64,000 nt of DNA from a phage. Both the position numbers and the translations under genes were made by a program. The number at the start of each line of letters is the position of its first letter. Position 1 is the stretch's first letter. Location of the stretch: the sequence record OZ336094.1, one strand, 5' to 3'. This document shows, piece by piece, positions 14,054 through 28,033 of the stretch. The notes under the pieces were generated by a model that was not told the DNA's origin, made no database searches, and worked only from the letters and a program-made list of their open reading frames with translations.

Positions 14054-14062
14054 AATAACTCC

Positions 14063-14626
14063 TTAAATAATTTTATTCATGTCTTGACAATGTAAAAGGT
14101 GTGAAACAGCTTTTCTAGGATCATCATTACCTAAACGGTATGTGTGAAATAAATATAACCCACGTAGTAAACCTAGCCTTTTATTGTTAGCGTGCAATGC
14201 TTTAGAGAAAATTATATCAAACTGTATTGATCTTTCCTCAAAAGGGATTTCATTCCACAGACTCTTACGAAAGAGAAGAAAGAATCCTGCTAAGATAGCA
14301 TCTGTAGGTACTTCCTCTATTGAGTTTCCCCATTCTAGATGTGCTCTTTTTGCAATCTCAATGTGGTGTAATATATTCGGATCTTCACTTCTTTCATTAT
14401 TAAATAATTGATATGTTGATCCCAATCTGTTACAAGATGCACCAAGAACATCAAAATCAGGATTTGAACGGACAATTGATTCCAGCCAAGCAGGTTGTTC
14501 TGGAAGAAGAAACATTGTATCAATGTCTCTTAGGCAAATCCAACTATCTTCTGGTAAGACACTTATTGTGTCATTGATACCTTTTCCAATATCTCCAGAA
14601 AGATAGGGAGTTATGTGAAATATCAT
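14063..14626 (-). CDS. Hypothetical protein, possible nucleotide-sugar transferase
   Basis: 187 aa; DxD-like segment WICLRDIDTMF; sits in the glycosyltransferase cluster; weak call. Confidence 0.3.
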   Translation of the reverse strand: MIFHITPYLSGDIGKGINDTISVLPEDSWICLRDIDTMFLLPEQPAWLESIVRSNPDFDVLGASCNRLGSTYQLFNNERSEDPNILHHIEIAKRAHLEWGNSIEEVPTDAILAGFFLLFRKSLWNEIPFEERSIQFDIIFSKALHANNKRLGLLRGLYLFHTYRLGNDDPRKAVSHLLHCQDMNKII

Positions 14627-14878: not shown

Positions 14879-15086
14879 CTACAACCTCCTTAATTGCTAC
14901 AGCACAGTTTTTGCAGATACACTGCCCTTTACCTTTAGAAATCTGGATGTAAGGTTCATTTTCATTTTCGCCCTTACGTGAGTCATATATTACAGTATTG
15001 AAGCACACAACGCAAATATTTTTTAAGATTGTATACTTATCAACTTTCTTTTTTGTTTTAAAGTTAACTTCAATAACATCAGCCAT
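14856..15086 (-). CDS. Hypothetical zinc-ribbon protein, 76 aa (start refined)
   Basis: Two CxxC pairs (CVVC...CKNC); internal ATG overlaps upstream stop (TGATG coupling). Confidence 0.4.
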   Translation of the reverse strand: MADVIEVNFKTKKKVDKYTILKNICVVCFNTVIYDSRKGENENEPYIQISKGKGQCICKNCAVAIKEVVDENHWDQ

Positions 15087-15364
15087 CAGTGTAACACTCC
15101 CAGTATGTTGCTTTGTGACATAACCATAGAACATTCAACATTATCGTGACTACGTGAAAAACGTTCCCAAACCTCTTCATCGACTCGTAAAGCTATACAA
15201 GGATAGACGTTATCATTGATCATTTCAATTGAATAAACATCCATATTGTCTTCGTCTTCGATGAACATCATTGCAAACTGTTCTAAATGTTTCCTAATGT
15301 AATGTACATCCTCTTCTGTAAGACCAATAACAAGATAACTTGCAACGATAACGCCATCTTTCAT
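15086..15364 (-). CDS. Hypothetical protein, 92 aa
   Basis: Track ORF; acidic. Confidence 0.4.
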   Translation of the reverse strand: MKDGVIVASYLVIGLTEEDVHYIRKHLEQFAMMFIEDEDNMDVYSIEMINDNVYPCIALRVDEEVWERFSRSHDNVECSMVMSQSNILGVLH

Positions 15365-15374
15365 CTATATCTCC

Positions 15375-15884
15375 TTAGCGATAGAATTGATGTTCTTTGT
15401 AGCGGTACACTAGAACCATATCTTTTTCCCAGTGTGCTCTTATTGTAGATTTTTTAAAGTATAATGCTCCTTTTGTAATATCTAATGCAATTCGTAATTC
15501 TGGAAAATGCGTATCGAGATAAAGTAGACGTTCTGCTATAGCCTTAGCTTCCTTCCACTTATCACGTTCCATAACGTTGAATGTCTTTGTGTAAGAGAAT
15601 TGTCCTTTTTGAAACAAAACTTCTTTTATAGTATCAGGGAAATATGAATCTCTAGCCCTATTCAATACTACATTACCAACAGCAGACATACCGCGCTTTC
15701 CTTGATTACGACTTTCTGCATAGATTGCACAAGCTAATAGATTTTCTTTACTATCACGCTTTGTACACTTGTGAACTACTTTAGCAGTTTTTACGTTTGC
15801 AGCTTCGGCTTGCGCCACAACAGGTGTAAATGTAAAAGCAGTTAAGGATAGTAACGCAATTGCGACAAAGGTTTTTATTGACAA
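15375..15884 (-). CDS. Secreted cell-wall hydrolase, SleB/CwlJ family; candidate endolysin or lytic accessory enzyme
   Basis: N-terminal signal peptide (FVAIALLSLTAFTFTPVVAQA); motifs AIYAESRNQ and GMSAVGNVVLNR typical of SleB-type hydrolases. Confidence 0.6.
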   Translation of the reverse strand: MSIKTFVAIALLSLTAFTFTPVVAQAEAANVKTAKVVHKCTKRDSKENLLACAIYAESRNQGKRGMSAVGNVVLNRARDSYFPDTIKEVLFQKGQFSYTKTFNVMERDKWKEAKAIAERLLYLDTHFPELRIALDITKGALYFKKSTIRAHWEKDMVLVYRYKEHQFYR

Positions 15885-15977
15885 ACTTGCCTCCTATTTT
15901 GTTAAACGAACTTTTATTGTAACACAGAAGAGGCTGTTTTGCAAGTGGAGGGGGATAATCCCCCCTCTTACACCCTG

Positions 15978-16580
15978 TTAGATGTTGTAAACCTTCGTAT
16001 GAGTTACTACACCATCTTCTACAAAATCAATACGTTCTTGATCCGTAACTAGTGCAGACAATACTTTAAATTTAATTGTTACACGTTCAAAAGCTGGTTG
16101 ACCATCTTTAAGATAATTATGTTCAGTTGTTACTGTCTTGTTTACAAAATCAACTTTTGCTTTACCGTTTTCGCGTAGGTGGAATGTTTTTCCTGCTTTG
16201 TACACAATTTCAACATTACCTTCGAGAGTAATTCCTTCAAAAAGTTCACCCTCTTCTTCATTTTCTTCATTTTTGAACAGACGACGAAACTCTTCCATAT
16301 CAAGATAAACAACATCTTCAGAATAACTATCAGTAAGGTATGTCTTACCATCCATTAACCCGAAATATTGCCAGATTGCAGAATAAACATCACTAGTTGA
16401 TCCAAGGGTTTCTCTGAGTTTAGTTCCACGGATTACTTCATAAACTTCAAAATTGAAACCAGACTGCAAAGCATTAAACAGTACATCACTAACTTCTAAA
16501 GCATAATCTTCATTGTTGTCAATATCCACAAGAAAATTACCGCTACGAATAAGTTTTTGACCTTCTAAAGTAATACCCAT
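15978..16580 (-). CDS. Hypothetical protein, 200 aa
   Basis: Track ORF adjacent to TerD-like gene; no motif recognised. Confidence 0.45.
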   Translation of the reverse strand: MGITLEGQKLIRSGNFLVDIDNNEDYALEVSDVLFNALQSGFNFEVYEVIRGTKLRETLGSTSDVYSAIWQYFGLMDGKTYLTDSYSEDVVYLDMEEFRRLFKNEENEEEGELFEGITLEGNVEIVYKAGKTFHLRENGKAKVDFVNKTVTTEHNYLKDGQPAFERVTIKFKVLSALVTDQERIDFVEDGVVTHTKVYNI

Positions 16581-16599
16581 TGTTTTCTCCTCTTTTATT

Positions 16600-16626
16600 T
16601 AAAATATGCGCCCCGAAGGGCGCTAT
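16600..16626 (-). terminator. Terminator hairpin (GCGCCC-CGAA-GGGCGC) downstream of the TerD-like gene
   Basis: 6-bp GC stem with tetraloop, T-rich tract follows on minus strand. Confidence 0.5.
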
Positions 16627-16632
16627 GATTTA

Positions 16633-17229
16633 TTACTCGAACCAATCGTCGCCAGCGCCAAACGCTTTAACTACATCATAAATGTCAAGTCCAGCTTTAC
16701 CTACACCATATGCTTTCAGTTTCCATTCGCTATCTTCCCGCACCAGGGAGGCAACGTGGCAAATGGTGTTACCTGCAAGTTCTGGAGCCAAGAAATCAAA
16801 ATCCAGCAGTTCAACGTTACGTTCATCATCGAAGATTTTAAGGAAACCTTCGGTAGCGTGACCAAGGCGTTTTTTACCCGTTTCGTCATCAATAGTAATT
16901 ACGAATGCAATTTCCTGTGCTTCAGCAGAGATATTATCCAGTGTAACATCAATCTGCTCCATCTGTCCTACACCGTCACGAACATCTTCACCTGCAAAAG
17001 TAGAACGTTCAGGATCAAATTTCTGTGCGTAGCATACCAGGTGGCGAGGAGACAACAGTTCCGGCAGACCAGATGCATTGTGTCGGCAAATCAGAGCACT
17101 AACATCCAGATCCAGTTTTTCGTTAGATTTCCAAGAGAATTCCAGACGAATGCGTTTCAGTGCTGGTGCAATCTTTTTCAGAGAAACTTTTTCGCTAGAA
17201 CCTTTTTTCAGGGAAATTTTCTGAGTCAT
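16633..17229 (-). CDS. terD: TerD-family protein (tellurite-resistance / stress-response TerD domain)
   Basis: 198 aa, typical TerD size; segments LDLDVSALIC and FAGEDVRDGVG...IDV resemble TerD Ca-binding motifs; RBS aaggag. Confidence 0.6.
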   Translation of the reverse strand: MTQKISLKKGSSEKVSLKKIAPALKRIRLEFSWKSNEKLDLDVSALICRHNASGLPELLSPRHLVCYAQKFDPERSTFAGEDVRDGVGQMEQIDVTLDNISAEAQEIAFVITIDDETGKKRLGHATEGFLKIFDDERNVELLDFDFLAPELAGNTICHVASLVREDSEWKLKAYGVGKAGLDIYDVVKAFGAGDDWFE

Positions 17230-17301
17230 AATTTATTATCTCCTTTGTTGTTAATTTACGTTGTCTATTTTACTAATCTTTTCTACAAAGTCAAGCGTTT
17301 T

Positions 17302-18096
17302 TTACGCTTTTGCTCCAAATTTTTTAACCCACTCACCAAACTCTTCGGATAGCAGTTTATCGTAAAGTTCTTCGTCAGACAAGGACAAATCTGCAATACC
17401 GATAAAATCAACATTATCGTATTCTTTTGCCAAGTCTTTCAGGAATTTAAAGTTTGCATTGCCTACACCAACCATAAACCAGTAAACAGGAGTGTTGCGG
17501 TGTTTGTTCAGCAAACTACGTACTGCTGAAGTATCCATGTTCTCCCCGTCAGTTTGGAAGAAAATCATTGCAGGAGTACGATCAACTTGTGCATCAGTAT
17601 CTACAACCTGTTCTACAACAGTACGTGTAACTTCTACACGTTCTTTTTTACCAGTTAGTTTAGCAAGGAAACCCTTAGCCGGAACTTCTTCATACTCAAC
17701 GACTTCGCGTGTAATATTTTTCATAGGTACACTACCGAAGTATGTATCATAGATCTCTTGCATTACTGGGGCATAAGCTGTACCACCATTGATGCAAACA
17801 TTAGACATACAAGAGCCGACATAATCATCATATACATCAGCCGTTGCAGGAGGCAGTTCAAAAGAAGAACTATTGAAAGCCCACATGTCAATCTGTGCAT
17901 TATCATCAAACTTCATACCAAACGGCAGCAGTTTACCTACAAAATCACTAACAGTGCCATCACGATACAGCTCACACATACTACCCGAAATATCTAAGGC
18001 ACTACCGACACGAAGAACAACATCGTTAATCTTTTTCTTACGCAGAGATACGGTAAGAGTTTCTTGACGTTTTTTAAGACTGATTTTATTGGACAT
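17302..18096 (-). CDS. von Willebrand factor A domain protein (TerY-like)
   Basis: MIDAS motif DISGSM near N-terminus; 264 aa; adjacent to TerD. Confidence 0.6.
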   Translation of the reverse strand: MSNKISLKKRQETLTVSLRKKKINDVVLRVGSALDISGSMCELYRDGTVSDFVGKLLPFGMKFDDNAQIDMWAFNSSSFELPPATADVYDDYVGSCMSNVCINGGTAYAPVMQEIYDTYFGSVPMKNITREVVEYEEVPAKGFLAKLTGKKERVEVTRTVVEQVVDTDAQVDRTPAMIFFQTDGENMDTSAVRSLLNKHRNTPVYWFMVGVGNANFKFLKDLAKEYDNVDFIGIADLSLSDEELYDKLLSEEFGEWVKKFGAKA

Positions 18097-18097
18097 A

Positions 18098-18367
18098 TTA
18101 TTTCTCCTTTCTGAGTGTAATGTTAGTAACTTCTAAATCCACTTCTACCATTTCTGTATCATACGAAATACAGCTAAGTTGACCTCTTTGCGAACCGTTC
18201 AGACACATTGCTTGGTTTGTATTAACCTTAATAAACACTAAGTTTCTGAACGTATCTAAACCAGAATCTTGATAGGCAACATAATATACAAATGTATCAC
18301 CTACGTCAAGTTCTCCAAAACATTTAGGTTCATCTGATTTGTCGTCTTTGATATTAAATTTAAGCAC
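18098..18367 (-). CDS. Hypothetical protein, 89 aa
   Basis: Track ORF in co-oriented array. Confidence 0.4.
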   Translation of the reverse strand: MLKFNIKDDKSDEPKCFGELDVGDTFVYYVAYQDSGLDTFRNLVFIKVNTNQAMCLNGSQRGQLSCISYDTEMVEVDLEVTNITLRKEK

Positions 18368-18923
18368 TGTCTTCTCCTTTACCTGCTCTCAAGCCTAAAT
18401 AGAAAGCCTCTCTGGTGATCTTTTGCAACTCGTTTAAAGAGATAGTTACAACTAAATCATCTTCAATTTCTAGCTTTGAGTCTTCTTCTGTCTCAATGCA
18501 AGTATTATGCACTTTGTGGTAAGGATTGTCAACACGTTTAAATTTATTATTTTCAGTGCTGAAGAAGCAATCTGGATCTTCTTCCCCATCACCCCAACCC
18601 TGGTTAGGATCTTCTTCAGATCTTTCTGTTGGGATCTCGCCTGTAAAGTGCTCTTCTAATACCAGAGCAATCCCATCTCCAAGATCGGAAGAGAACATCA
18701 AATTACAAACTTCTTCCCAAGGCATAGACCACTTAAATCTTTTACGATTGCCATGTTTATCTTCTTCGTTAGAGAAAACACTACCATAGCTATCATAATT
18801 CCCATACATCTCTTCGACTACCTTACCACCTTTCAAAAGAAATAGGTAGCAAGGAGAGCCATCGAAAGAGGTAGAAAGAGCAGCATTACCAGACTCTTTG
18901 CACAAGAAACTAAAACACCCCAT
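18360..18923 (-). CDS. Hypothetical protein, 187 aa
   Basis: Track ORF; acidic C-terminal half. Confidence 0.45.
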   Translation of the reverse strand: MGCFSFLCKESGNAALSTSFDGSPCYLFLLKGGKVVEEMYGNYDSYGSVFSNEEDKHGNRKRFKWSMPWEEVCNLMFSSDLGDGIALVLEEHFTGEIPTERSEEDPNQGWGDGEEDPDCFFSTENNKFKRVDNPYHKVHNTCIETEEDSKLEIEDDLVVTISLNELQKITREAFYLGLRAGKGEDSA

Positions 18924-19123
18924 TATACACCAGCCTTAAGATCAATTAAAGCCAAAGTTGTTTCAGAGTGTGTTTGCTCGTCTACAGGTGCAGTCATATG
19001 ATAATACAAAAAATCTTCGGCATCATACCAATCTGATTCTTGACCTTGTTTCCAACCATCAATGAAAGCATCTTCCACAATGGTTTGCAATTCTTCACGA
19101 GTTAAGTGAATATCTTTACTCAT
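18923..19123 (-). CDS. Hypothetical protein, 66 aa
   Basis: Track ORF; stop/start overlaps with neighbours. Confidence 0.4.
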   Translation of the reverse strand: MSKDIHLTREELQTIVEDAFIDGWKQGQESDWYDAEDFLYYHMTAPVDEQTHSETTLALIDLKAGV

Positions 19124-19329
19124 TACACATTCTCCTCTTTTACCAATTCCATTGTTGAATTGTCAAAACCATCTTTAGAAGAATAGGTATAGACAGAACG
19201 TAGTTCTCGCAGGACAGTGAATACATTAGGATCATCTAACCAAGCATCCTGGAGGAGAACATAACGATCTTCATTGTCATATTGAACAGCAATCATAGAA
19301 CCAGACAGTTTGTAAATTTTAATATTCAT
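19123..19329 (-). CDS. Hypothetical protein, 68 aa (start refined to Met 10 with RBS aaggag)
   Basis: Track ORF 19123..19356; internal ATG preceded by aaggag. Confidence 0.4.
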   Translation of the reverse strand: MNIKIYKLSGSMIAVQYDNEDRYVLLQDAWLDDPNVFTVLRELRSVYTYSSKDGFDNSTMELVKEENV

Positions 19330-19342
19330 AATATATTTCTCC

Positions 19343-20446
19343 TTAAAGTAGACCACGTTTAACAGTTTGAATCATACCATCTTCAAGAGATTGCACTTCT
19401 TGAATGTAATCAATACGAGCAGCACGGGCTTCAGTGTTGATTCGGTTAGTTTCTTCCAACATTTTAACTAAGTTTTCTTGATCACGACGCAATGTTTCAA
19501 TATCCAATACTTGACGATTAGCAAGTTGTGTAGCTTCAATTTGGTTTTGTGCAGCCAGATCACTACCCATTGCAATAGCAGCATTAAATTCATTCAGTAC
19601 ATTGTTCTGTGTATCGGCTGCTTTCTTCTGGCGTAGACTTTCAATATACATAGAAAAGTTTGCAGAGTAAGCAGGAATAACATTATTCACAATATTACGG
19701 GCTGATCGCATCAAACTTGCAGATACTTTCTGCATACTTTGTACACGTGGCCCCATCTGAACACACAGTAAACGCAAGGCTTTCAGATCTGCAATACGAA
19801 TTTCAAGCAGATCCATAGTATCACGAGTACGTTGACGCTCTTCTACTTCATTTTCAGGTAGTGTATTAAGGCGAACTTCTTCTTTTTCATAAGTAGCTGT
19901 TAGAAGCTCTATATCCCTGTTTAAGCTAAGAGCATATTTTGCAATAGCTTCCTCTAAACGTTGCAGATATCGTAAAGAATCTTCTTCTTTTTTCAAGTCT
20001 GTTTGGAGTGTCTTTACCAAACCTTCAATACGGTTATTGATGGTGTCAAATTCTCCAAACAAATCTTCTTTCATACCTAAAACTTTCTTAACTAGTTTAC
20101 CTAAACCTTTAGATTGTTTAATAGAGTTAGGATCAAGTTGCTTTGCTTGCTTAATAAGCGCAGTTAAACGTTCACTCATTTCATCTCCCTGAGATGAACG
20201 CTGGTGTTTAAGCACTTCAGCATTAAGGTTACGAAGAGTAAGTCCTGCATCAGCACCAACCTGTTCAATCTCTTCACGAGACATTGGAGGCAGCATTTGT
20301 ACAGGGCGTGCAACAGCAGGGGCATATACAGGGCTTGCATCCATAGCACTTGGAGCAAACAAAGACTTACTTTTTTCTGTTGTTGCCGTGAATACACTCA
20401 TTTCAGACGGTTTGCTTTTTACGGCACTGATAAAAGGACTGGACAT
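19343..20446 (-). CDS. TelA-like toxic-anion-resistance family protein (coiled-coil)
   Basis: 367 aa, size and predicted coiled-coil character of TelA; context with TerD, vWA and TerC; call is context-weighted. Confidence 0.4.
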   Translation of the reverse strand: MSSPFISAVKSKPSEMSVFTATTEKSKSLFAPSAMDASPVYAPAVARPVQMLPPMSREEIEQVGADAGLTLRNLNAEVLKHQRSSQGDEMSERLTALIKQAKQLDPNSIKQSKGLGKLVKKVLGMKEDLFGEFDTINNRIEGLVKTLQTDLKKEEDSLRYLQRLEEAIAKYALSLNRDIELLTATYEKEEVRLNTLPENEVEERQRTRDTMDLLEIRIADLKALRLLCVQMGPRVQSMQKVSASLMRSARNIVNNVIPAYSANFSMYIESLRQKKAADTQNNVLNEFNAAIAMGSDLAAQNQIEATQLANRQVLDIETLRRDQENLVKMLEETNRINTEARAARIDYIQEVQSLEDGMIQTVKRGLL

Positions 20447-20514
20447 TCAATTTCCTCCATATTCTTTAGTAAATGGTGATACCTCTGTACCACCATCATA
20501 ACACAAGTTAAGTA

Positions 20515-21366
20515 TTAAACAAACATATCTAAATAATTTGTAGTAATAAATGCTCCATCTGCTTCCAGATTAACATAACCCGTGGTATTAGTAGTTAAGA
20601 AATCCAGATCGAAGGACTCTTTAACACCCCGTACCTCAACACGAGAGATATCGAATACAGGTAGTGTAACAGCCTCTTCGTGCAATACCGTACCTTTGTA
20701 GGTTGCCTTAATGATAAACTTGATATTACCTGTTCCAGCATCATATAAAACACTTTCAAACCCTTTGAGAGTATATTTATCACCAGAAGTGAAGTGCAAA
20801 GTTGCTTTGTTTACAGTACGTTTCTTACGAGGAGTTCCTTTCACACGTTTATGATCACTACGTTTTTTGTATTTAGGAATGAATACAAACGATACACTCT
20901 CAAGAAAGGTATCAACATCAAGGATTTTAATATCCTCTGTTGCAGCAAATTTTGAAGTCGTTGCATCAAAATGCTTTTCCCTGCGATCATACATAAAGAT
21001 ATCAAACCGATCTTCTAAATCAAACAAATTATGTATTTTAATTTCAGAATGCTTGCGCATTGCAGCAACCTTGAACTCTTCAAAACGTGGGTGTTCTACA
21101 AGTTCTTCAAGTTTTACACCAAAGACAGTATATTGCTTCGAAGTCTTTTCTGGTGTTGGCATTACAGAAGCATAGTCCCCGATTGCGCTCTTAAAGCAAA
21201 ATTGTTCTTGACCTGTATTTTTACCAACGAATTTACAGTATTCGTCATTGTGCATACTTTCCTTAGTAGTACCAACAAACTCAAAACCATCTTTATTCTT
21301 CTCAAGAATTTCTTGATTAAAAATCCAACCTTCCAGGCGATACACTTTACCAACTTCTAGTTTCAT
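20515..21366 (-). CDS. Hypothetical protein, 283 aa
   Basis: Track ORF; no motif recognised. Confidence 0.45.
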   Translation of the reverse strand: MKLEVGKVYRLEGWIFNQEILEKNKDGFEFVGTTKESMHNDEYCKFVGKNTGQEQFCFKSAIGDYASVMPTPEKTSKQYTVFGVKLEELVEHPRFEEFKVAAMRKHSEIKIHNLFDLEDRFDIFMYDRREKHFDATTSKFAATEDIKILDVDTFLESVSFVFIPKYKKRSDHKRVKGTPRKKRTVNKATLHFTSGDKYTLKGFESVLYDAGTGNIKFIIKATYKGTVLHEEAVTLPVFDISRVEVRGVKESFDLDFLTTNTTGYVNLEADGAFITTNYLDMFV

Positions 21367-21401
21367 CTGTTTCTCCTTCTTATTTAATCTGTATTAAATT
21401 A

Positions 21402-21992
21402 TTAACGACGACGTGAGCTACTAAAACTACGTTTCGACGAAGAATAACTTTTCGAAGACTTACTATAAGAGCTAATAGGGCTTGAGTAAGACTTACGAGC
21501 AGAGTAATCACTATTCACTTTTGTTGTTGACGGGCGTGAATACGTTTGTACACTTTGCTGCTTAATTGTGTTTTGTTTAGTGGTTGTATATGTATTCCCT
21601 TGTTTATCATAAAAACGATGCTTTTGTGTTGTATATGCTTTACTATTAGTTGTAGGAGCAGCGTTGTTATTGATAATTGTTGTATTGCTACCGCCATCTC
21701 TATAACCACCACCGCCACTATTACCACTCAACATATGACCAAGAAGCATACCTGTAGCAAACTCACCTACACCAGAAGAACCACTACCGCCTCCTTGCAC
21801 AACAACTGTTGAAGGTTGTGCAGGTGCTGCTTGAACAACTTGAGGTGCAGGCTGATTTACATATTGTTCATCTACCATCTGATTTGGTGTTTGTTGGTAA
21901 CGTTGATTTTGTACATTTTCAGAATCATCACAACCTACCAGCAATGCACTACCTAAAACAACTGCAACAATAAAAGATTTAATGTTTTTCAT
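21402..21992 (-). CDS. Putative lipoprotein with Ser/Tyr-rich low-complexity C-terminus (start refined)
   Basis: Signal peptide with lipobox LVGC (MKNIKSFIVAVVLGSALLVGCDD); RBS gagagg; Gly-rich and SYSS-repeat tail. Confidence 0.5.
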   Translation of the reverse strand: MKNIKSFIVAVVLGSALLVGCDDSENVQNQRYQQTPNQMVDEQYVNQPAPQVVQAAPAQPSTVVVQGGGSGSSGVGEFATGMLLGHMLSGNSGGGGYRDGGSNTTIINNNAAPTTNSKAYTTQKHRFYDKQGNTYTTTKQNTIKQQSVQTYSRPSTTKVNSDYSARKSYSSPISSYSKSSKSYSSSKRSFSSSRRR

Positions 21993-22185
21993 TTGTAACC
22001 CTCTCATTTAAAGTCTCAACACAATTTTTAAAATCCCTAGAGAAACAATACATCTGTTCTCCGTTCCTGTTGATAGTAATTGTATGGTTATCAATATATG
22101 TTGTCAAGATAAAAATCAAACAAAACAACCCTAGAGCAAAACAAATATTTTCAAACAGAATCCAAAGAACACGTAAAACCACCAT
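21979..22185 (-). CDS. Hypothetical small membrane protein, 68 aa
   Basis: Hydrophobic N-terminus; RBS gaggtg; overlaps start of lipoprotein gene. Confidence 0.35.
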   Translation of the reverse strand: MVVLRVLWILFENICFALGLFCLIFILTTYIDNHTITINRNGEQMYCFSRDFKNCVETLNERVTNEKH

Positions 22186-22199
22186 CAGATCACCTCAAC

Positions 22200-22219
22200 A
22201 AAGCCCCCGAAGGGGCTTA
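22200..22219 (-). terminator. Hairpin (AGCCCC-CGAA-GGGGCT) downstream of the TerC-like gene
   Basis: GC stem with tetraloop; weak T-tail. Confidence 0.4.
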
Positions 22220-22224
22220 ATGAA

Positions 22225-23202
22225 TTAAGCAACAGTCTGGTCTTCTTTTTCAGGGAAGATTAAACTTGCAACAACACCCAACCCAAGAGTACCTAACACA
22301 ATATACATACTGATCGTCGGATCAATGTGTGCTGGCAGGAAACTGACTTTTGCGTGCAGAGTTTCTGCAAACGGGTGATACATCAGTTTTACACCCACAA
22401 ACACCAGGACTACGATAACTGCTTTCTCCAGATGAACCAAATACTTCAGTGCAACACTAAGAACAAAGAACAGAGCACGTAAACCTAAGATTGCACAGAG
22501 CATCGAAGAGAACACCAGTAGAGGTTCTTGTGTCACTGCAATTACTGCTGGAACAGAGTCTACTGCAAAGATTACGTCAACCATTTCCATTACAAACACA
22601 CAAACCAGAGCCGGAGTTGCTACACGAACACCATTTTTGATTGTGAAGAACTTCTCACCATCCATCTGATCAGATACAGGGAACAGCTTACGAACAATGC
22701 GAGTAGCCCAGTGTTTAGAGTAATCAACTTCTGCATCATTATCTCCAGCGAATACCATTTTAGCCGCACAGAAAAGGATGACAGCACCGAAGAAGATATT
22801 AACATACCAGCCCAAACTCAACAAGTAAGTACCTACTGCTACAAACACACCTCGGAAGACAATCGCACCTGCAATACCCCAAAGTAGAATCTTGTGCTGC
22901 AAGTGTGTGCTTTTAATACCAAAACTTGCGAAGACTGCCACAAATACTACTAAGTTATCTACAGAAAGAGATTTCTCCAACACATACCCACTCAAAAACA
23001 AGCTCGCAAAATCAGCACCGTGTTGGAAGTATACAAAACCATAGTAGGCTAATGATACCCCAATCCAGAAAATTGACCAGCCAATTGCAGATTTAAATGA
23101 AATTTCTTTGTTTTCTCTGTGTCCAAAGAAGTCAATACAAATCGACAAGACTAAAATACCCACTAAAACAACCACATCAATAATTGGGAAACCCAGTTGC
23201 AT
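22225..23202 (-). CDS. terC: TerC-family integral membrane protein
   Basis: 325 aa with multiple TM segments; motif EKSLSVDNLVVF matches the conserved TerC signature. Confidence 0.6.
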   Translation of the reverse strand: MQLGFPIIDVVVLVGILVLSICIDFFGHRENKEISFKSAIGWSIFWIGVSLAYYGFVYFQHGADFASLFLSGYVLEKSLSVDNLVVFVAVFASFGIKSTHLQHKILLWGIAGAIVFRGVFVAVGTYLLSLGWYVNIFFGAVILFCAAKMVFAGDNDAEVDYSKHWATRIVRKLFPVSDQMDGEKFFTIKNGVRVATPALVCVFVMEMVDVIFAVDSVPAVIAVTQEPLLVFSSMLCAILGLRALFFVLSVALKYLVHLEKAVIVVLVFVGVKLMYHPFAETLHAKVSFLPAHIDPTISMYIVLGTLGLGVVASLIFPEKEDQTVA

Positions 23203-23219
23203 TCTTTTCTCCTCTTTAA

Positions 23220-23238
23220 TGCGGAGGACAATCCTCCG
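23220..23238 (-). terminator. Hairpin (GCGGAGGA-CAA-TCCTCCGC) between an upstream small gene and terC
   Basis: 8-bp stem; no strong T-run, may be an RNA-stability or attenuator element. Confidence 0.35.
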
Positions 23239-23279
23239 CTCTATGTCTTATACTATAAACTGTTTTTAAAGAAAGTCAA

Positions 23280-23528
23280 CTAGTTCAGTTCTGTAATTTT
23301 AAGTTTATCTTCTTTGTTAATGATAGGGAAAGCTACAGCATCACCTACGTCATCAATAAAGCAAATAGCAATACCACCTTCCACTTTGCTAATCTGACCA
23401 TTAAAGGCGTGATACGGGGCAGGAACTTGATCTCCATCTTCAAGGAGAATAGCCTCGTAAACCTTGCCGATAGTACAATCACGAGTGTTTCTAAATTTTT
23501 CAAGCACTTCAACATTTACTTTACGCAT
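23280..23528 (-). CDS. Hypothetical protein, 82 aa
   Basis: Track ORF. Confidence 0.4.
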   Translation of the reverse strand: MRKVNVEVLEKFRNTRDCTIGKVYEAILLEDGDQVPAPYHAFNGQISKVEGGIAICFIDDVGDAVAFPIINKEDKLKITELN

Positions 23529-23542
23529 ATAAAAATCCTCTC

Positions 23543-23749
23543 TTATTTGTTAGATTGAAAGATACCACGAAGTACCGCAAGAATGAACGTCACACAGACT
23601 ACACTCCAAAACGTTACAGGAACATGATGCCAGTCTAAGCCGATAATGTCAATCATATAATTGTATGCTAAAAGCAGTAGCCAACTAGGGATTAACACAA
23701 TCAAGAACACAACAATAAAACAACCTAATACTGCTAAAACACCTGCCAT
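23543..23749 (-). CDS. Hypothetical membrane protein, 68 aa
   Basis: Two predicted TM helices. Confidence 0.4.
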   Translation of the reverse strand: MAGVLAVLGCFIVVFLIVLIPSWLLLLAYNYMIDIIGLDWHHVPVTFWSVVCVTFILAVLRGIFQSNK

Positions 23750-23758
23750 ACTTTCTCC

Positions 23759-24475
23759 TTATTTCAGTTTGTAAACAATTACATTTAAACCTTTGTTTAC
23801 TAGAGTTTCTTCGATCATAAGTTTTACAATATTCCAAGAACCTCCAGCCAAACCACAACCAAGCATTGGTAAACCTACAATTTTACCGCCTGAAGATACA
23901 ACATCGTCTCCCATACTATCTAACGCATTGTAGATAGCTTCATAATTCAGGTCACGCTTACCTTCCTCACGACGACTATAACCATATTGTCCATATAAAT
24001 TATAAATTGTCAAATTGTTTTCTGTATACTTGGTAAACGTACCTAATTTTTTATAATCACCACGTTTAGTGGCACAATCTGCTTTAAACGCACCAGGCCA
24101 CTTACTTTTAATTTTTGGTGCAATACCACTACCCATAGTGCAAAAACAGTTACAGCAGTGTGCTATAGCGTCTATATCGCCTCTCTCGGCTGCTGCTAAA
24201 AGATCACCGTATACCTCAATGATACCTGCTGGATAACTTGTTACAATTTCATCTTCCCAGTACATTTTCTCTACACCACCGATCAGTGCAAAGTTTTGTG
24301 TAATGCGATCATCAATATAGTTAAGACCTGAAACATACACAGCATATTCATCCTGTGCTGTAATACCTTGTACACGAATTCTTAAGACACCATCTTTATC
24401 TGTTGCTACACGCCCAAAATCTTTTTCTGTAATATTGGTGATAGGATCTCCGAAAGTCATTACTTTATTAGACAT
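23759..24475 (-). CDS. Macro-domain protein (ADP-ribose binding/processing), start refined
   Basis: Segments DAIAHCCNCFCTMGSGIAPKI and GLPMLGCGLAGGSW resemble macro-domain motifs (VNAAN..GGGV..AI and FP.I.TG.YG.P); internal ATG with RBS aaagggga overlaps PRTase stop. Confidence 0.5.
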   Translation of the reverse strand: MSNKVMTFGDPITNITEKDFGRVATDKDGVLRIRVQGITAQDEYAVYVSGLNYIDDRITQNFALIGGVEKMYWEDEIVTSYPAGIIEVYGDLLAAAERGDIDAIAHCCNCFCTMGSGIAPKIKSKWPGAFKADCATKRGDYKKLGTFTKYTENNLTIYNLYGQYGYSRREEGKRDLNYEAIYNALDSMGDDVVSSGGKIVGLPMLGCGLAGGSWNIVKLMIEETLVNKGLNVIVYKLK

Positions 24476-25325
24476 AATAATCCCCTTTAACATTAGATTT
24501 GTTGATAATGTTGCTTTCAAAAAATTGACGTAGGAAATCAAAGTTCTCTTTATATTTTTCAATATTATTGTAGCCTTCTGCAAGGCAACCAAAGAACAGT
24601 TGTTCTACATAATACAAAGGAAGCTGTGAAAGTGCAATTTTAAAATCAACTTCGCTTTGACTCATTAGATACTTAATAGGACGAACCAAACATTTAGCAT
24701 CAGTTTCTTGCTTAATCATTTTAATAAAAGCTGCCAGGTTATTGATGTAGTTGAAGTTAAGTGCAGCTTCGGTGTTGGCTTCTGTACCTTCATACTTTGC
24801 AAAGTACAGGAAAAACGTATCGTTTTCAACACCTTCTTTGTCTAAAATTTCAATAAGTTTTTCTTCGTGCGTTCCTGTAATATTAACATCATCAATGAAA
24901 ATCAGAGTTTTATTACCCCAGAAATCACGATTGATAGAGAAAGTGTCACCATCGATCAAAGCCTTACGATCTTCTTTGCTAAGAAATCCATAATCATTGA
25001 TATAGCTCACTTTACGATGAACGATATCCCACTCCACGGCTTTACCTCCTTTGATAGAGATTAGGTAGTTGAGGTGATCTACAAAATGTTCAGATAACAC
25101 TGTAGCTGCATTTTTCACATAGTTATATGGAGATGGAATAACAACAAAACTTTCATTTACCAGTCGTTCTTCATACTTGGAAAAGAAACTTTCAGCCAGA
25201 ATGCGCCCCATTCTTTTTGCTGCCTGGTTACTACCAAACTTTAGCTTGGAATAATCTGCAATGTTAAATTTTGCTTCCTTCAGGTTAGTAAAAGTATTAG
25301 CAAAATGTTGAATTTGATTACGCAT
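24468..25325 (-). CDS. Phosphoribosyltransferase (PRTase)-domain protein
   Basis: PRPP-binding-like motif TLIFIDDVNITGTHEE. Confidence 0.55.
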   Translation of the reverse strand: MRNQIQHFANTFTNLKEAKFNIADYSKLKFGSNQAAKRMGRILAESFFSKYEERLVNESFVVIPSPYNYVKNAATVLSEHFVDHLNYLISIKGGKAVEWDIVHRKVSYINDYGFLSKEDRKALIDGDTFSINRDFWGNKTLIFIDDVNITGTHEEKLIEILDKEGVENDTFFLYFAKYEGTEANTEAALNFNYINNLAAFIKMIKQETDAKCLVRPIKYLMSQSEVDFKIALSQLPLYYVEQLFFGCLAEGYNNIEKYKENFDFLRQFFESNIINKSNVKGDYYV

Positions 25326-25974
25326 TAATAAGTTCCTCTTTTTTAAGTTTAGCCAACAAGTCTTCTGGATTAATAATATGACAGAACTTCATCCCTATGT
25401 CAACAGCTTTTCCATCATAAATCAAACTATCTCCAACGTGTAAAATCTCCTCTGGTGCGAGATCAAACGTTACCATTTCATCAAAAGAGAGTTTAAAAAA
25501 CCTGGGATCTGGTTTACACAAGCAAAACTCATCAGAAAAATGCATAAAATCGAATGGTAATTTTGTCAAGCCAGAATATACAGCTAAGAAACTACCAGGT
25601 ACAAAATTGGTATTGCTCTTAATACTCAAAGAATAGGTTGAACTTAGCTCTTCCAACTTCTTGCAAAGTTCAGGATTCAATGTTGGAGGATGTTTTATAA
25701 ACATTGCTAAACAGTCTCTTTTTAACCCATCCACTTTATCAAGATCAATGTTCAAACGAGTAGAAAGTGTTACCCAAGCATCCTTAGACGTTCCACAAAT
25801 GCCTTTTTCTGCTTTTAAATCCAGGAGAGTTTTTACCTCTTTATATACGGTAGCTGCTTCTACCTCAGAACAAGAGGCATACTCGGCAATAACCTTGTTG
25901 CGTTCTTCTGCATACAAAGGATTAGCAGTAATAAGAGTATTCCATACATCAAAAGAAATATGCTTAACAGTCAT
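25318..25974 (-). CDS. HAD-superfamily hydrolase-like protein (start refined)
   Basis: N-terminal ISFDVWNTLI (HAD motif I-like) and C-terminal VGDSLIYDGKA (motif IV GDxxxD); motif I lacks the second Asp. Confidence 0.45.
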   Translation of the reverse strand: MTVKHISFDVWNTLITANPLYAEERNKVIAEYASCSEVEAATVYKEVKTLLDLKAEKGICGTSKDAWVTLSTRLNIDLDKVDGLKRDCLAMFIKHPPTLNPELCKKLEELSSTYSLSIKSNTNFVPGSFLAVYSGLTKLPFDFMHFSDEFCLCKPDPRFFKLSFDEMVTFDLAPEEILHVGDSLIYDGKAVDIGMKFCHIINPEDLLAKLKKEELINA

Positions 25975-25976
25975 TT

Positions 25977-26132
25977 TTAATCCTCCGTCCAAAAGAATAT
26001 CATCTGCTTAATTTTATTGATCTCTTGATGTAGTAACTTTCCAGCATGTGATTGATCTTTAATATTGACAGCAAGAATTTCAAGCTCCGTTAGTTTTTCT
26101 TGGATAGCTTTATATTCATCATCTGTAAGCAT
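25977..26132 (-). CDS. Hypothetical small protein, 51 aa
   Basis: Hand-translated ORF (MLTDDEYKAIQEKLTELEILAV...), RBS aggggaag; below track size cut-off. Confidence 0.35.
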   Translation of the reverse strand: MLTDDEYKAIQEKLTELEILAVNIKDQSHAGKLLHQEINKIKQMIFFWTED

Positions 26133-26143
26133 TTTCTTCCCCT

Positions 26144-26347
26144 TTAGAATGGTAATCTTTGTATGTCACTTATCCCCACACCAAGAAGTCTAGCAATATC
26201 CTTATCTAAAAGCAACTCTTTTTGTTCTAAAATGTTAATCAGATCTCCTAATACTTCTTTAATGTCACGATCATTTTTAGCAACGTGACCACCTGCGGTA
26301 TCAACTTTATCTTTAAAAACAAAATAATGATCCATAATACCCTCCAT
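26144..26347 (-). CDS. Hypothetical protein, 67 aa
   Basis: Track ORF. Confidence 0.4.
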   Translation of the reverse strand: MEGIMDHYFVFKDKVDTAGGHVAKNDRDIKEVLGDLINILEQKELLLDKDIARLLGVGISDIQRLPF

Positions 26348-26352
26348 ATAAA

Positions 26353-26378
26353 TAAAGGAGGCTTTCGCCTCCTTTTAT
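26353..26378 (-). terminator. Terminator hairpin (AAGGAGGC-TTTC-GCCTCCTT) downstream of AAA+ ATPase gene
   Basis: 8-bp stem, tetraloop, T-rich flank. Confidence 0.5.
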
Positions 26379-26381
26379 CAC

Positions 26382-27542
26382 TTAGTAAGAACGACCACCA
26401 AACACATACTCTGTGTAGTTTTTACGTTCTTTGTTTTTAATAACAACTTCAATGTTGTTACCTTTATCATCGGTGAACATAAAGTGATAACCGTCACCAC
26501 CCATTGTACGAATGTGTTTTTCATCATACGTTAGCAAGATACGGTCTACACCCCAGTAGTAGTCACCTTCTTCATCTTTATCTTCTACAGTAACGATCCC
26601 TTCCATTTCAGGAAGATGCTCTTCTCCTGACTTATGATCTACAGCTACAACATAACGATTACCGCTAAACAAACCTTGTGCTGTCATACCGTCAATATCG
26701 GTATCTGACGAAACATCTCCTGTACGATCTACACCGTTAACTTTCAGAAGTTTAACTTCTTTTGCAGCATAGCGGTGTTCAGTAATACTGATACCCATTA
26801 ATGCAAGTGCATCAGAGAATTTGTCATTAGGGTAACGGTTAAGTTCTTCTACTAATGACTGAACAATATCAAAGTTCAAATCCACGGAGAGATTATAAAG
26901 CGTTTCAAAATCTGGTAAGAAGGCTTTGTTCTCCAGATTTTTAGCCAGATAATCATCCATAGTAGCTTTAGGTAGTTTCTTATAGCTAAAACTGTAGAAA
27001 ATACGGCTAGGACGATTACGCAAAAATTCTGATACATAACCATCATTTTTAGTCAATACAAACAGTTTGTCGTAGCCACCAACACCATCCAGCAGGGTAA
27101 GCAAACCATCTTGTGCATCTTTTTCAGCATACAGTTTATCAAATTCATCGATCATAATCATCACAGGTTGTGTGATTTTAGACATAAAGTTGATAAAGCC
27201 TTCACCATTAAAAGCACTACCGATAGAAATAGTAGGAATACCCATTTCACGAAGAGCAGAAGACAGCATTTTAGCTTGCAAAGTTTTACCGCTACCTTTC
27301 GTACCCTCAAGGAGAACACCTGTGTTTTTACCTTTGCGGCTAAGGAACGTCTTGATAATACGTTCTGATTTATCATCAGTATCACCGTATGTTACTGAAG
27401 GGACTTCCATATCGTTTTTAGGATACAGGAAGAACTCGCCACTTTGAGTAACACCTACACCAAAAGTTCCTGCTGGAATTTCTTCAATATCTGTACCAGA
27501 CTTCTGACGCAGGAAGATTTGATTGCCGAATACTGTAAACAT
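26382..27542 (-). CDS. AAA+ ATPase (classical-clade-like), paralog A
   Basis: Walker A GTKGSGKT, Walker B IMIDEFDK, sensor-1 LTKN, SRH-like LRNRPSR; paralogous to 42038..43165. Confidence 0.6.
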   Translation of the reverse strand: MFTVFGNQIFLRQKSGTDIEEIPAGTFGVGVTQSGEFFLYPKNDMEVPSVTYGDTDDKSERIIKTFLSRKGKNTGVLLEGTKGSGKTLQAKMLSSALREMGIPTISIGSAFNGEGFINFMSKITQPVMIMIDEFDKLYAEKDAQDGLLTLLDGVGGYDKLFVLTKNDGYVSEFLRNRPSRIFYSFSYKKLPKATMDDYLAKNLENKAFLPDFETLYNLSVDLNFDIVQSLVEELNRYPNDKFSDALALMGISITEHRYAAKEVKLLKVNGVDRTGDVSSDTDIDGMTAQGLFSGNRYVVAVDHKSGEEHLPEMEGIVTVEDKDEEGDYYWGVDRILLTYDEKHIRTMGGDGYHFMFTDDKGNNIEVVIKNKERKNYTEYVFGGRSY

Positions 27543-27562
27543 AGTTTTCTCCTCTATTTAAT

Positions 27563-28033
27563 TTAGTCAGATTCCCAAATGTTGTCTTTCTTAACCCACA
27601 TTCGTTGATTATCTGAACCTCTATAACGTTTCGTTGTTGGTTGATTCATATCATACTTACCATCTATCACTATGTCAACCAGTTTTTTAATTTTTTCTGG
27701 AATTTCTTCAAAAAGATATCCTGTATATAAAACAATATCTTTTTTGTTTCCAAAACAATCTCTTACCTTCTCAAGAACATACTCTACAGTATCAATGTTC
27801 TCTTTGTCAAGAGGTTCACCACCTAAAACTGTTAATCCTTTAATGAAAGGTCGAGATAAATCTTTCAAGATAAGATCTAATGTTTCAGCAGTGAACTCTT
27901 GTCCGTAGTTATACGACCAGGCTTTCTGGTTAAAGCAGCCACGGCAACCGTGGCTACAACCGCTCACCCACAAAGAGCATCTTACACCGTCACCGTTGAG
28001 CATGTCAACAGGTTCATATCCGGCGTAATTCAA
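27563..28033 (-). CDS. nrdG: Anaerobic ribonucleotide reductase activating protein (radical SAM)
   Basis: Cys cluster GCSHGCRGC (CxxxCxxC); 156 aa; immediately downstream of nrdD. Confidence 0.8.
   Translation of the reverse strand: MNYAGYEPVDMLNGDGVRCSLWVSGCSHGCRGCFNQKAWSYNYGQEFTAETLDLILKDLSRPFIKGLTVLGGEPLDKENIDTVEYVLEKVRDCFGNKKDIVLYTGYLFEEIPEKIKKLVDIVIDGKYDMNQPTTKRYRGSDNQRMWVKKDNIWESD

Follow-up and report, generated by a model that had tools for sequence, protein, structure and literature searches.

A Ter-type accessory island with a HAD-PRTase_3 cassette in Escherichia phage Paula

The window analysed in this study, a stretch of 64,000 nucleotides (record OZ336094.1), originates from Escherichia phage Paula, a virulent, phi92-like Justusliebigvirus (100% match to LR865361.1). 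It carries a Ter-type accessory island of phi92-like phages, which can be classified by its gene content as a genuine but reduced Ter system, because unrelated large phages and bacteria also have six of its genes (TerD, vWA-TerF, TelA, TerC, HAD, and PRTase_3) together in a single contiguous cluster. We give a probability of roughly 0.5 to the reading that this island conditions the envelope of the infected cell, with PRTase and HAD making a ligand and the macro-domain protein being a separate anti-DarT2 gene.

As judged from terminator-like hairpins, the island naturally extends from approximately 16608 to 26375, and therefore gp188 and gp189 (25977–26335) join the range described in an earlier note on this sequence, which had started at TerD and ended at HAD. 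The island corresponds to gp172–gp189 of phi92, and all seven genes named there are encoded on the minus strand at the coordinates listed below. Three co-oriented units can be distinguished. Unit 1 has the order gp189-gp188-HAD-PRTase_3-macro-gp184-gp183; unit 2 starts with a host-type promoter and comprises TerC-gp181-gp180 (lipoprotein)-gp179-TelA-gp177-gp176-gp175-gp174-vWA (TerF type); unit 3 consists of TerD alone, with a promoter-like site of its own at 17267–17294 (promoter scan). The features are as follows:

16608–16623, no strand assigned: GC-rich bidirectional hairpin directly after TerD, downstream boundary of the island (hairpin scan)
16633–17229, minus: single TerD-domain protein (Pfam 5e-28; matches to PDB 2kxt and 3ibz)
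17302–18096, minus: stand-alone vWA-TerF-like protein with intact MIDAS (Pfam 7e-39)
18098–19329, minus: homologues of gp177, gp176, gp175, and gp174, four small acidic ORFs conserved in the subfamily (homologue comparison)
19343–20446, minus: TelA-family protein (Pfam 5e-34)
20515–21366, minus: gp179 homologue, 283 aa, lineage-restricted (profile and homologue comparison)
21402–21992, minus: gp180 homologue, predicted lipoprotein with lipobox LVGC; low-complexity body rich in Gly, Ser, and Gln
21979–22185, minus: gp181 homologue, 68 aa, one predicted N-terminal TM segment (TM prediction)
22225–23202, minus: TerC/Alx-type integral membrane protein with about 8 TM segments (Pfam 1e-38; TIGR03718)
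23221–23279, minus: sigma70-like promoter TTGACT-16-TATAGT, then GC-rich hairpin, in the TerC 5′ leader (promoter and hairpin scan)
23280–23528, minus: gp183 homologue, 82-aa ORF (Paula annotation)
23543–23749, minus: gp184 homologue, 68 aa, two predicted TM segments, conserved across Stephanstirmvirinae (TM prediction)
23759–24475, minus: macro-domain protein of the SCO6735/BT1257/TARG1/DarG class (Pfam 3e-7)
24468–25325, minus: PRTase_3, ComF-like type I phosphoribosyltransferase (Pfam 1e-41)
25318–25974, minus: HAD-superfamily hydrolase of the PRTase_3-linked subfamily (Pfam 1.3e-5; NCBIfam HAD-IA models)
25977–26132, minus: gp188 homologue, 51-aa ORF, genus-restricted (Paula annotation and locus comparison)
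26144–26335, minus: gp189 homologue, 63 aa, opens the enzyme transcription unit (annotated as 'putative transcriptional regulator')
26354–26375, minus: terminator-like hairpin and T-run 3′ of the AAA-ATPase gene, upstream island boundary (a terminator according to the Paula annotation)

The domain assignments of the earlier note were all backed by Pfam; HAD scored marginally below the cut-off (26.1 versus 26.4 bits), was also matched by several NCBIfam HAD-IA models and has all four HAD motif positions. Domain calls and the recurrent cluster likewise bear out the proposed link of a Ter-type neighbourhood to a PRTase and HAD enzymatic module. Nine uncharacterised ORFs are located between the named genes, where at least eight had been counted, and they include the lipoprotein (gp180) and small membrane proteins (gp181, gp184) described before. 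In contrast, Pfam and NCBIfam profiles detected no TerB, TerZ/A/E paralogues, ATP-grasp, or TIM-barrel lyase among the island proteins, so that the set cannot be called complete.

About 133 sequenced Stephanstirmvirinae genomes have the island conserved, and the co-conservation expected in related phages was found as identical gene order in phAPEC8 and other members of the subfamily. Among the records of the phage collection, 55, 55, and 54 at Justusliebigvirus level and 77, 78, and 78 at Phapecoctavirus level contain TelA, vWA, and PRTase, respectively. Because TelA, vWA-TerF, and PRTase_3 are each present in only 157–245 of 50,697 phage records, their co-location is far beyond chance. Purifying selection acts on all island genes, the within-genus dN/dS of the named genes being 0–0.15. 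Clusters of the six-gene type were also found in the Pedococcus chromosome and several MAGs, and Caulobacter, Brevundimonas, and Rhizobium phages have both the cassette and Ter genes, located far apart in the genome.

A model of bacterial Ter/TelA stress-response systems was reportedly put forward by Anantharaman, Iyer and Aravind in 2012, and yceCDEFGH of Bacillus subtilis is a cluster of the TerD-TerC-TelA type. The Paula island shares TerD, TerC, TelA, and a TerF-type vWA with yceCDEFGH and terZABCDEF (IncHI2 plasmid R478, E. coli O157), and the linked PRTase and HAD 'nucleoside-like metabolite' module with bacterial Ter systems, of which the Pedococcus cluster contains PRTase_3 and HAD. 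It differs by its virulent phage carrier, its single TerD protein with a degenerate Ca2+ motif, a vWA not fused to a TerD domain, the presence of one PRTase only, and the lack of TerB, TerZ/A/E, TerW/X/Y, ATP-grasp, and TIM-barrel lyase. The suggestion of host takeover or counter-defence restates a published hypothesis of the Aravind group. Also, the island as such is no discovery, since the Paula genes are already so named in GenBank and phage Ter systems with PRTase and HAD have been published, namely for Acinetobacter phage vB_AbaM_ME3 (Iyer et al. 2021, PMC7824862). Further phage-borne Ter operons were described in Caulobacter jumbo phages (same study), Klebsiella phage phiKp34 (PMC8386662), and Pseudomonas phage phiPsa374 (PMC9796965), with superinfection exclusion or stress tolerance as proposed role (PMC7824862, PMC8386662, PMC9796965). 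Paula has in common with them a TerC, TerD, TerF-vWA, and TelA hub in a virulent phage; however, it is a non-jumbo E. coli phage with a genome of 146 kb, nine lineage-specific small ORFs are interspersed, and cassette and Ter block lie on either side of a backbone macro gene, whereas in the Caulobacter phages they are tens of kb apart.

Among the Ter proteins, motif alignment indicated the loss of the acidic GDGDD stretch from the Ca2+-binding motif of TerD, a new detail at the sequence level which makes a metal-sensing role of this protein uncertain. The vWA protein carries the MIDAS motif noted earlier, with D35-x-S37-x-S39, T106, and D183 invariant in 15/15 homologues. For TelA, a low-confidence AF2 model used for secondary structure only predicts an all-helical protein whose helices are very long and whose N-terminal ~56 aa are disordered, and no relatives were found among solved structures. 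TerC reached 323 bits with TIGR03718 (cut-off 246) and has the conserved residues D82/N83, E206, D209, and D215. The promoter in its leader matches the position of an annotated host-type promoter in phAPEC8; no riboswitch was found in this leader.

HAD adjoins PRTase_3 in 49 of 54 loci, and the two form a universal two-gene cassette. Motif I of HAD reads S-F-D-x-W-x-T, with Trp replacing Asp+2; D9 is conserved in 47 and W11 in 46 of 49 sequences, S120, K154, D182, and D187 are further conserved positions, and the best PDB match (2om6) has an identical FDVWNTL. The Trp in this PRTase-linked family is a new detail, as read from the alignment, and because such a HAD is without the Asp+2 general acid/base, it cannot be taken for granted that it acts as a simple nucleotide phosphatase. 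PRTase_3 has an invariant PRPP loop (DDVxITGTHE) and can be confidently assigned to the type I fold; it is ~12–13% identical to any solved PRTase and differs from ComF-like and other type I PRTases by an extra C-terminal helical domain (residues ~197–279). The deposited name 'orotate PRTase' found no support from any specific match.

For the macro protein, the best matches were SCO6735 and DarG (PDB 5e3b 3e-15; NCBIfam and PADLOC DarG 1e-13). Its N109 and Q163 are conserved and align with Asn27 and Gln85 of SCO6735, which are essential for dT-ADPr-DNA hydrolysis there. The protein has the macro fold of SCO6735, DarG2, TARG1, and AdfM, the latter a likewise phage-encoded macrodomain countering DarTG2. 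It differs by the missing Lys of DarG, TARG1, and AdfM, the missing Asp of TARG1, the lack of a DarT-binding C-terminal domain, and an N-terminal extension of ~85 aa present only in Justusliebigvirus. A macro homologue is present in 2,973 phage records and mostly stands by itself. The gene belongs to an older backbone common to Ter-less Vequintavirinae, and we consider it most probably not a part of the Ter system but an independent putative anti-DarT2 function, a SCO6735-type hydrolase removing DarT2-type ADP-ribose from DNA.

The earlier note had instead combined macro, PRTase, and HAD to a three-gene enzymatic module, of which the HAD-PRTase_3 pair stands and the macro gene does not. A single 9-kb system, in which the three enzymes form one pathway for an ADP-ribose- or nucleoside-like metabolite sensed by the Ter membrane proteins, is in our view quite improbable. 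The overlapping stop and start codons are real 8-nt ATGnnTAA junctions (HAD to PRTase, ATGCGTAA; PRTase to macro, ATGTCTAA), thereby implying co-expression from which functional coupling could follow, the HAD-PRTase-macro order is common to both genera of the subfamily, and on the unrelated contig L015 a distance of 6 kb lies between a macro gene and a Ter, HAD, and PRTase cluster. However, macro is absent from the clusters of L009, L019, L021, L023, L024, and L028 and from the bacterial loci, another gene separates it from PRTase in L013, and in the Vequintavirinae phage CR9, with no Ter genes nearby, it is followed after one gene by the same SleB-type hydrolase as in Paula. Its closest characterised relatives also act on ADP-ribosylated DNA or protein and not on free metabolites.

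The cassette could also be an autonomous nucleotide-pool or counter-defence module, for example making or destroying a nucleotide or consuming PRPP, functionally unconnected to TerD, TerC, TelA, and vWA and adjacent to them by clustering of accessory early genes. In rhizobial genomes and at 15 of the 23 unrelated viral loci, the cassette has no Ter gene nearby; in a Rhizobium phage the neighbour is NMN adenylyltransferase/Nudix and in XaC1-like phages a DUF2828 protein, the PRTase fold is also that of regulators, ComF, and the ShosT toxin, and the natural, viable isolate JLBYU50 has kept its Ter genes and lost the cassette, the latter being a new detail. Nevertheless, we regard this autonomy as unlikely, because Ter clusters directly enclose the cassette in at least six divergent phage contigs and in bacteria of three phyla, and cassette-bearing phage lineages encode vWA-TerF and TelA at other genomic sites. 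Of 23 non-related viral loci, 7 have their nearest Ter gene at a distance of less than 1.5 kb (rough binomial 2e-7), as in L021 with the order TelA-vWA-TerC-HAD-PRT-TerD. Tellurite or other metal resistance for the infected host would match the deposited product names, and plasmid ter operons need TerC and TerD families for Te resistance; yet with TerB and the TerZ/A/E paralogues missing, the reason for which the authors on a comparable phage cluster thought it unlikely, and no lasting host to protect because the phage is virulent, this is very hard to believe.

According to the preferred reading, conditioning of the envelope, TerC as an Alx-type divalent-cation exporter would enter the inner membrane after infection, and TerD, the MIDAS-vWA, and the long-helix TelA would assemble below it. 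PRTase_3 would join PRPP to a base or nucleophile, and from this product HAD would make a nucleoside-like ligand or signal for the TerD-vWA-TelA complex. Thereby, the infected cell would be conditioned in its envelope and cation balance, which may shield the infection and shut out later phages or colicins in the manner of the plasmid ter operon. In bacteria, the ter operon inhibits phages and confers resistance to colicins, and terC influences plaque size and the resistance to Zn and Mn; for phage Ter genes, the literature yielded no experiment. Against this mechanism count the absence of TerB, the link between sensor and enzymes in the published model, the frequency of cassettes distant from Ter genes, and the viability of JLBYU50.

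Small ORFs also accompany the cassette in other loci. A gp189 homologue is kept upstream of HAD in phAPEC8, L013, L014, and L016, and gp180 homologues are located a few kb away from HAD-PRTase in L004, L008, and L019.

The region 16633–25974 on the minus strand is equivalent to genes gp172–gp187 of phage phi92. The genome of Escherichia phage Paula (LR865361.1; Stephanstirmvirinae, Justusliebigvirus) is 100% identical to window positions 16000–26500, while the identity there is 98% for phi92 and for over 50 further relatives. Deposited names already exist for the key genes, namely 'putative stress protein/TerD family protein', 'VWA domain-containing protein', 'toxic anion/tellurite resistance protein' and 'tellurium resistance protein TerC' on the Ter side, and 'phosphatase/macrodomain protein', 'phosphoribosyltransferase' and 'HAD-like hydrolase' on the enzyme side. 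All ORF positions of the earlier note were confirmed, and its domain calls were reproduced by Pfam searches for TerD (PF02342, 5e-28), the vWA-TerF-like protein (PF10138, 7e-39), TelA (PF05816, 5e-34), TerC (PF03741, 1e-38), the macro domain (PF01661, 3e-7), PRTase_3 (1e-41) and HAD (1.3e-5, marginally under the Pfam cut-off and backed by NCBIfam HAD-IA matches and conserved HAD motifs). The MIDAS assigned to the vWA protein is invariant (DxSxS, T, D; 15/15). Also the uncharacterised ORFs, the lipoprotein and the small membrane proteins were recovered: nine ORFs had no Pfam or PHROG function, gp180 carries a lipobox, and one and two transmembrane segments are predicted for gp181 and gp184, respectively. 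The genes and transcription signals of the island are as follows.

26354–26375, hairpin with T-run after the upstream AAA-ATPase gene
25318–25974, minus strand, HAD-like hydrolase
24468–25325, minus strand, PRTase_3
23759–24475, minus strand, macro domain
between gp183 and TerC, sigma70-like promoter TTGACT-16-TATAGT and, between it and the TerC start, a leader hairpin and then a strong RBS
22225–23202, minus strand, TerC
19343–20446, minus strand, TelA
17302–18096, minus strand, vWA protein
upstream of TerD, promoter-like site
16633–17229, minus strand, TerD
16608–16623, GC-rich bidirectional hairpin after TerD

Because of the boundary hairpins and the promoter sites before TerC and TerD, the island reads as three units, gp189-gp188-HAD-PRTase-macro-gp184-gp183, TerC…TelA…vWA, and TerD. 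In phage phAPEC8 (Phapecoctavirus), a host-type promoter is annotated at the position equivalent to that between gp183 and TerC. The stop/start overlaps described for the enzyme genes were found to be 8-nt ATGnnTAA junctions, both from HAD to PRTase and from PRTase to macro. Control of the Alx-type TerC by a riboswitch was considered and rejected, since neither the yybP-ykoY/Alx type nor any other Rfam family matched at E ≤ 1 in 15000–29000 and the leader comprises only about 50 nt.

The co-conservation expected in related phages was found. In phAPEC8, HAD, PRTase, macro, a small transmembrane protein and TerC…TelA…vWA…TerD lie between NrdDG and a SleB-type endolysin in the same order as in Paula, and most of the small island ORFs have homologues there as well. 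Homologues of TelA, vWA and PRTase in the phage collection numbered 55, 55 and 54 at the Justusliebigvirus level and 77, 78 and 78 at 60–80% identity. Within the genus, all island genes are under purifying selection, with dN/dS ≤ 0.15 for all named genes and 13–17 synonymous but no nonsynonymous differences in TerD and PRTase. TerC is 94% identical on the amino acid level between Justusliebigvirus and Phapecoctavirus at a dS of 0.79, compared to dS > 1.5 for its neighbours, and it provides the only long DNA-level match between the two genera (86–88%). This high conservation suggests a recent exchange of TerC. At the gp175 position of L011, the IMG/VR copy of phage PD06, the match extends over 31 codons only in a relative that is otherwise 97–100% identical, which suggests that gp175 is disrupted or replaced there.

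Paula TerD matched PDB entry 2kxt at 9e-15, and its alignment with Klebsiella TerD covers the whole protein. At residues ~78–92, the canonical Ca2+ motif GDN(R/L)TG(E/A)GDGDDE is not preserved, and Paula and all Stephanstirmvirinae carry AGEDVRDGVGQME instead; the acidic GDGDD, kept in most other phage and bacterial TerDs of the comparison, is lost in this subfamily and reads GVGQME. TerD paralogues without metal binding are known from bacteria. TerC scored 323 bits with TIGR03718, above the trusted cut-off of NCBIfam, which places it in the TerC/Alx subfamily, and has the conserved acidic membrane motifs D82/N83, E206, D209 and D215. The PF05816 match of TelA spans 306 residues; a solved relative was not found, and the single-sequence AF2 model (pLDDT 59, pTM 0.40) is usable only as a sign of long helices.

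The island is, however, not the complete set the earlier note had seen in it. Operons of the terZABCDEF type (R478/O157) encode the paralogues TerZ, A, D, E and F plus TerB, whereas the Paula island has one TerD-domain gene and lacks TerB: no Pfam match to TerB was obtained at E ≤ 0.01 among the 20 island ORFs, and PHROGs returned unknown-function families only. The ATP-grasp and TIM-barrel lyase genes of full Ter versions are also absent from the island. The Paula island is thus a reduced Ter hub.

To analyze the linkage of the enzyme genes to the Ter genes, 54 PRTase_3 loci were collected from phage records, IMG/VR contigs, metagenome contigs and bacterial genomes, and their ORFs were searched iteratively with the Paula island proteins. 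For bacterial genomes, a scan with a single PRTase sequence gave no matches, whereas an alignment-based scan did. In 49 of the 54 loci, PRTase_3 has a HAD gene of the same subfamily as its neighbour, in most cases immediately upstream, and the two genes form a fixed cassette. Among the 23 viral loci outside the Stephanstirmvirinae, TerD lies within 10 kb of the cassette in eight and the nearest Ter gene less than 1.5 kb away in seven; a random-placement binomial gives 1e-3 and 2e-7, respectively, as rough values uncorrected for relatedness. The gene order varies between these loci, being TelA-vWA-TerC-HAD-PRT-TerD in L021 and L015, TelA-HAD-PRT-vWA-TerC-TerD in L023 and TerC-vWA-TerD-TerD-TelA-HAD-PRT in L019. 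The same cluster is found on a Pedococcus chromosome with TelA, four TerD genes, TerC, vWA, HAD and two PRTases, and it is partly present in MAGs of Bacteroidota and other groups. In Caulobacter, Brevundimonas and Rhizobium phages, both sets are present, with the cassette far from the vWA-TerF and TelA genes. On the basis of the 54-locus comparison, TerD, vWA-TerF, TelA, TerC, HAD and PRTase_3 constitute a recurrent functional neighbourhood, and exactly this neighbourhood has been proposed for Ter systems, including those of phages, by the Aravind group.

The three-gene enzymatic module of the earlier note therefore holds for the HAD-PRTase_3 pair, which is recurrent and linked to Ter genes, but not for the macro gene, which stands beside PRTase only in Stephanstirmvirinae and has a more distant copy in L015 and XaC1-like phages. 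Macro homologues are carried by 2,973 phage records, in most of them on their own. Cronobacter phage CR9 (Vequintavirinae) has macro, one further gene and then the SleB-type hydrolase that is also found at the flank of the Paula island, and no Ter genes are located near macro in an 18.5-kb stretch. Therefore, macro and the SleB-type hydrolase belong to an older shared backbone. In Paula, the ~7-kb block from TerC to TerD lies between the two, and the HAD-PRTase cassette lies just upstream. The 8-nt overlap shows that PRTase and macro are expressed together, but they need not act in one pathway.

According to Pfam, PDB and DarG models, the macro domain belongs to the ALC1/TARG1-like class, its best characterised relatives being SCO6735 (5e3b, 3e-15), BT1257, TARG1 (3e-10) and DarG (models, 1e-13); DarG, for the macro domain, was also the only defence-system match in PADLOC. 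The ADP-ribose that DarT places on thymidine in DNA is removed by SCO6735, which lacks the TARG1/DarG lysine and for which Asn27 and Gln85 are essential (PMC9411070). In the alignment (chain numbering offset +20), these residues correspond to Paula N109, present in 11 of 11 phage homologues, and Q163, present in 10 of 11. Where DarG, TARG1 and AdfM have the catalytic Lys and TARG1 has Asp, the Paula protein has Gln and Ala, as does SCO6735. It also differs from DarG in that it matches only positions 4–147 of the 338-position DarG model, DarG having in addition a C-terminal DarT-binding domain, and the island contains no DarT gene. A phage macrodomain, AdfM, has been shown experimentally to defeat DarTG2. 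From these residue and gene-content comparisons, the most economical reading is that the macro protein acts as an independent anti-ADP-ribosylation factor, and among phage factors against DarT2 it is a good candidate for a second class, of the SCO6735 type. The Justusliebigvirus protein carries an N-terminal extension of ~85 aa (residues 1–85) without any family match, which is absent from the Phapecoctavirus protein (157 aa) and the Vequintavirinae copies.

PRTase shows the PRPP-binding loop (hydrophobic run, two acidic residues, xxTGxT) and the PRT fold of type I enzymes and is ComF-like. Phage NAD+ reconstitution of the NadV/Nampt type (PMC9503650) uses a type II TIM-barrel nicotinamide PRTase together with an adenylyltransferase; neither is encoded in the Paula island, and NAD+ salvage was ruled out as the role of its type I PRTase. 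In the partner enzyme, D9, S120, K154 and D182/D187, i.e., the nucleophilic Asp of motif I, motifs II and III, and the acidic pair of motif IV, are conserved in at least 47 of 49 sequences. Motif I reads S-F-D-x-W-x-T (residues 9–13), with Trp at Asp+2 in 46 of the 49 members of the PRTase_3-linked subfamily, so the general acid/base usual at this position in HAD phosphatases is missing. The only solved relative, the uncharacterised archaeal protein 2om6, shares this motif as FDVWNTL. Because of this Trp, the PRTase_3-linked HAD may not be a plain, routine nucleotide phosphatase.

Elsewhere the cassette has other neighbours. In XaC1-like jumbo phages, the next gene encodes a ~530-aa DUF2828+DUF7788 protein, and Ter genes are lacking at that site (10967–12562 in locus L008; 15941–17527 in L004). 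In Rhizobium phages, genes for NMN adenylyltransferase/Nudix and PnuC are located beside the cassette or at a distance of a few kb (locus L005 of RHph_TM61, 5857–6420; L007, 20132–21809), a possible hint at pyridine-nucleotide chemistry; such neighbours were not seen in Paula. In rhizobia, the cassette has HipA, OmpW and a ClpP-like protein as neighbours, from which no hint at its function was obtained.

A natural deletion is present in JLBYU50, a Justusliebigvirus isolated on K-12 MG1655. About 2.4 kb are missing (window ~24137–26590 versus 12759–14082 in OK272470.1). The lost DNA comprises gp189, gp188, the HAD and PRTase genes, the N-terminal half of the macro gene and a portion of the AAA-ATPase gene; the TerC-to-TerD block is intact. 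The cassette is thus not required under laboratory conditions and can be separated from the Ter block, and JLBYU50 represents a ready-made cassette-minus control.

What has been shown concerns gene content and motifs, operon signals and synteny, and selection and linkage; the following mechanism is inferred. The island would be expressed early from host-type promoters; TerC may export cations across the inner membrane; a membrane-associated complex may be assembled from TerD, the MIDAS-vWA protein and TelA; and PRTase_3 and HAD could produce a nucleoside-like ligand. Thereby, the infected envelope would be stabilised and secondary phages or colicins excluded, an outcome proposed by analogy with plasmid ter operons, which confer phage inhibition and colicin resistance, and with terC, which affects plaque size and Zn/Mn tolerance. 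Our literature search found no experiments on any phage-borne Ter copy. A more far-reaching reading, in which TerC, TelA, vWA-TerF, TerD, PRTase_3 and the Trp-type HAD are a self-contained minimal Ter machine whose enzymes make a ribosylated small molecule sensed by TerD/vWA/TelA at the membrane, so that large virulent phages seal the cell against superinfecting phages or colicins, is tentative, with a probability of about 0.25.

If true, the island offers a tractable entry to the decades-old question of Ter function, since E. coli K-12, on which Paula-type phages grow, lacks a ter operon, and JLBYU50 provides a natural isolate without the cassette. Ter systems are widespread and tied to virulence, metal tolerance and phage inhibition, and the question of their molecular function dates from the 1990s. 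The compact hub with HAD-PRTase_3 is under purifying selection in ~133 E. coli and Klebsiella phages manipulable on K-12, and a K-12-infecting phage carrying it is a convenient test system for Ter proteins. Experiments may be guided by the separable cassette, the HAD without the usual Asp+2 and the macro protein as anti-DarT2 candidate. The Paula island is no new kind of system: the system type, its presence in virulent phages and the PRTase+HAD link have been published, and the island itself is already annotated. What appear new, and modestly so, are the backbone origin and SCO6735-type nature of macro, the Trp-type HAD, the degenerate TerD metal motif and the JLBYU50 deletion.

Several further genes and records deserve mention. 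The gp171 homologue (15978–16580) encodes a 200-aa acidic protein just outside the terminator-like hairpin after TerD; the unrelated contig L019 has a homologue, placed between its TerC and vWA genes, phAPEC8 has none, and gp171 is possibly an occasional Ter-associated gene. Homology searches with gp171 and gp179 returned only near-identical phage proteins. The gp181 gene for a small transmembrane protein overlaps the start of the lipoprotein gene gp180 (21402–22185 for the two genes together); the gp180 product has a Gly/Ser/Gln-rich body and homologues 3–4 kb from HAD-PRTase in XaC1-like phages and L019. The overlap and the endolysin gene ~6 kb downstream prompted the idea of a spanin pair, which was rejected since gp181 lacks the length needed to cross the periplasm and the XaC1 gp180 homologues lie far from the annotated spanin; we regard gp181/gp180 as an envelope-directed pair with superficial likeness to spanins. 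A series of glycosyltransferase-like genes (12000–14626), annotated as such in JLBYU50 and phAPEC8, lies downstream of the endolysin region, and one of them (13676–14053) gave a weak, sub-threshold match (3e-5) to a TET-associated glycosyltransferase. DNA-level matches to the island were also obtained in five 'Campylobacter phage' records with C. jejuni as host (MG065639, MG065645, MG065656, MG065689 and MG065650). Phages A150, A145, C3 and A110a contain the full island at 98% identity, as in E. coli phi92-like phages, and B15 (MG065650) only ~580 bp of the TerD region at 79%, like a Phapecoctavirus. The C. jejuni host label of these records looks doubtful, and the records of 'Acinetobacter phage ABPW7' and 'Pseudomonas phage PsgM04F' likewise look Phapecoctavirus-like.
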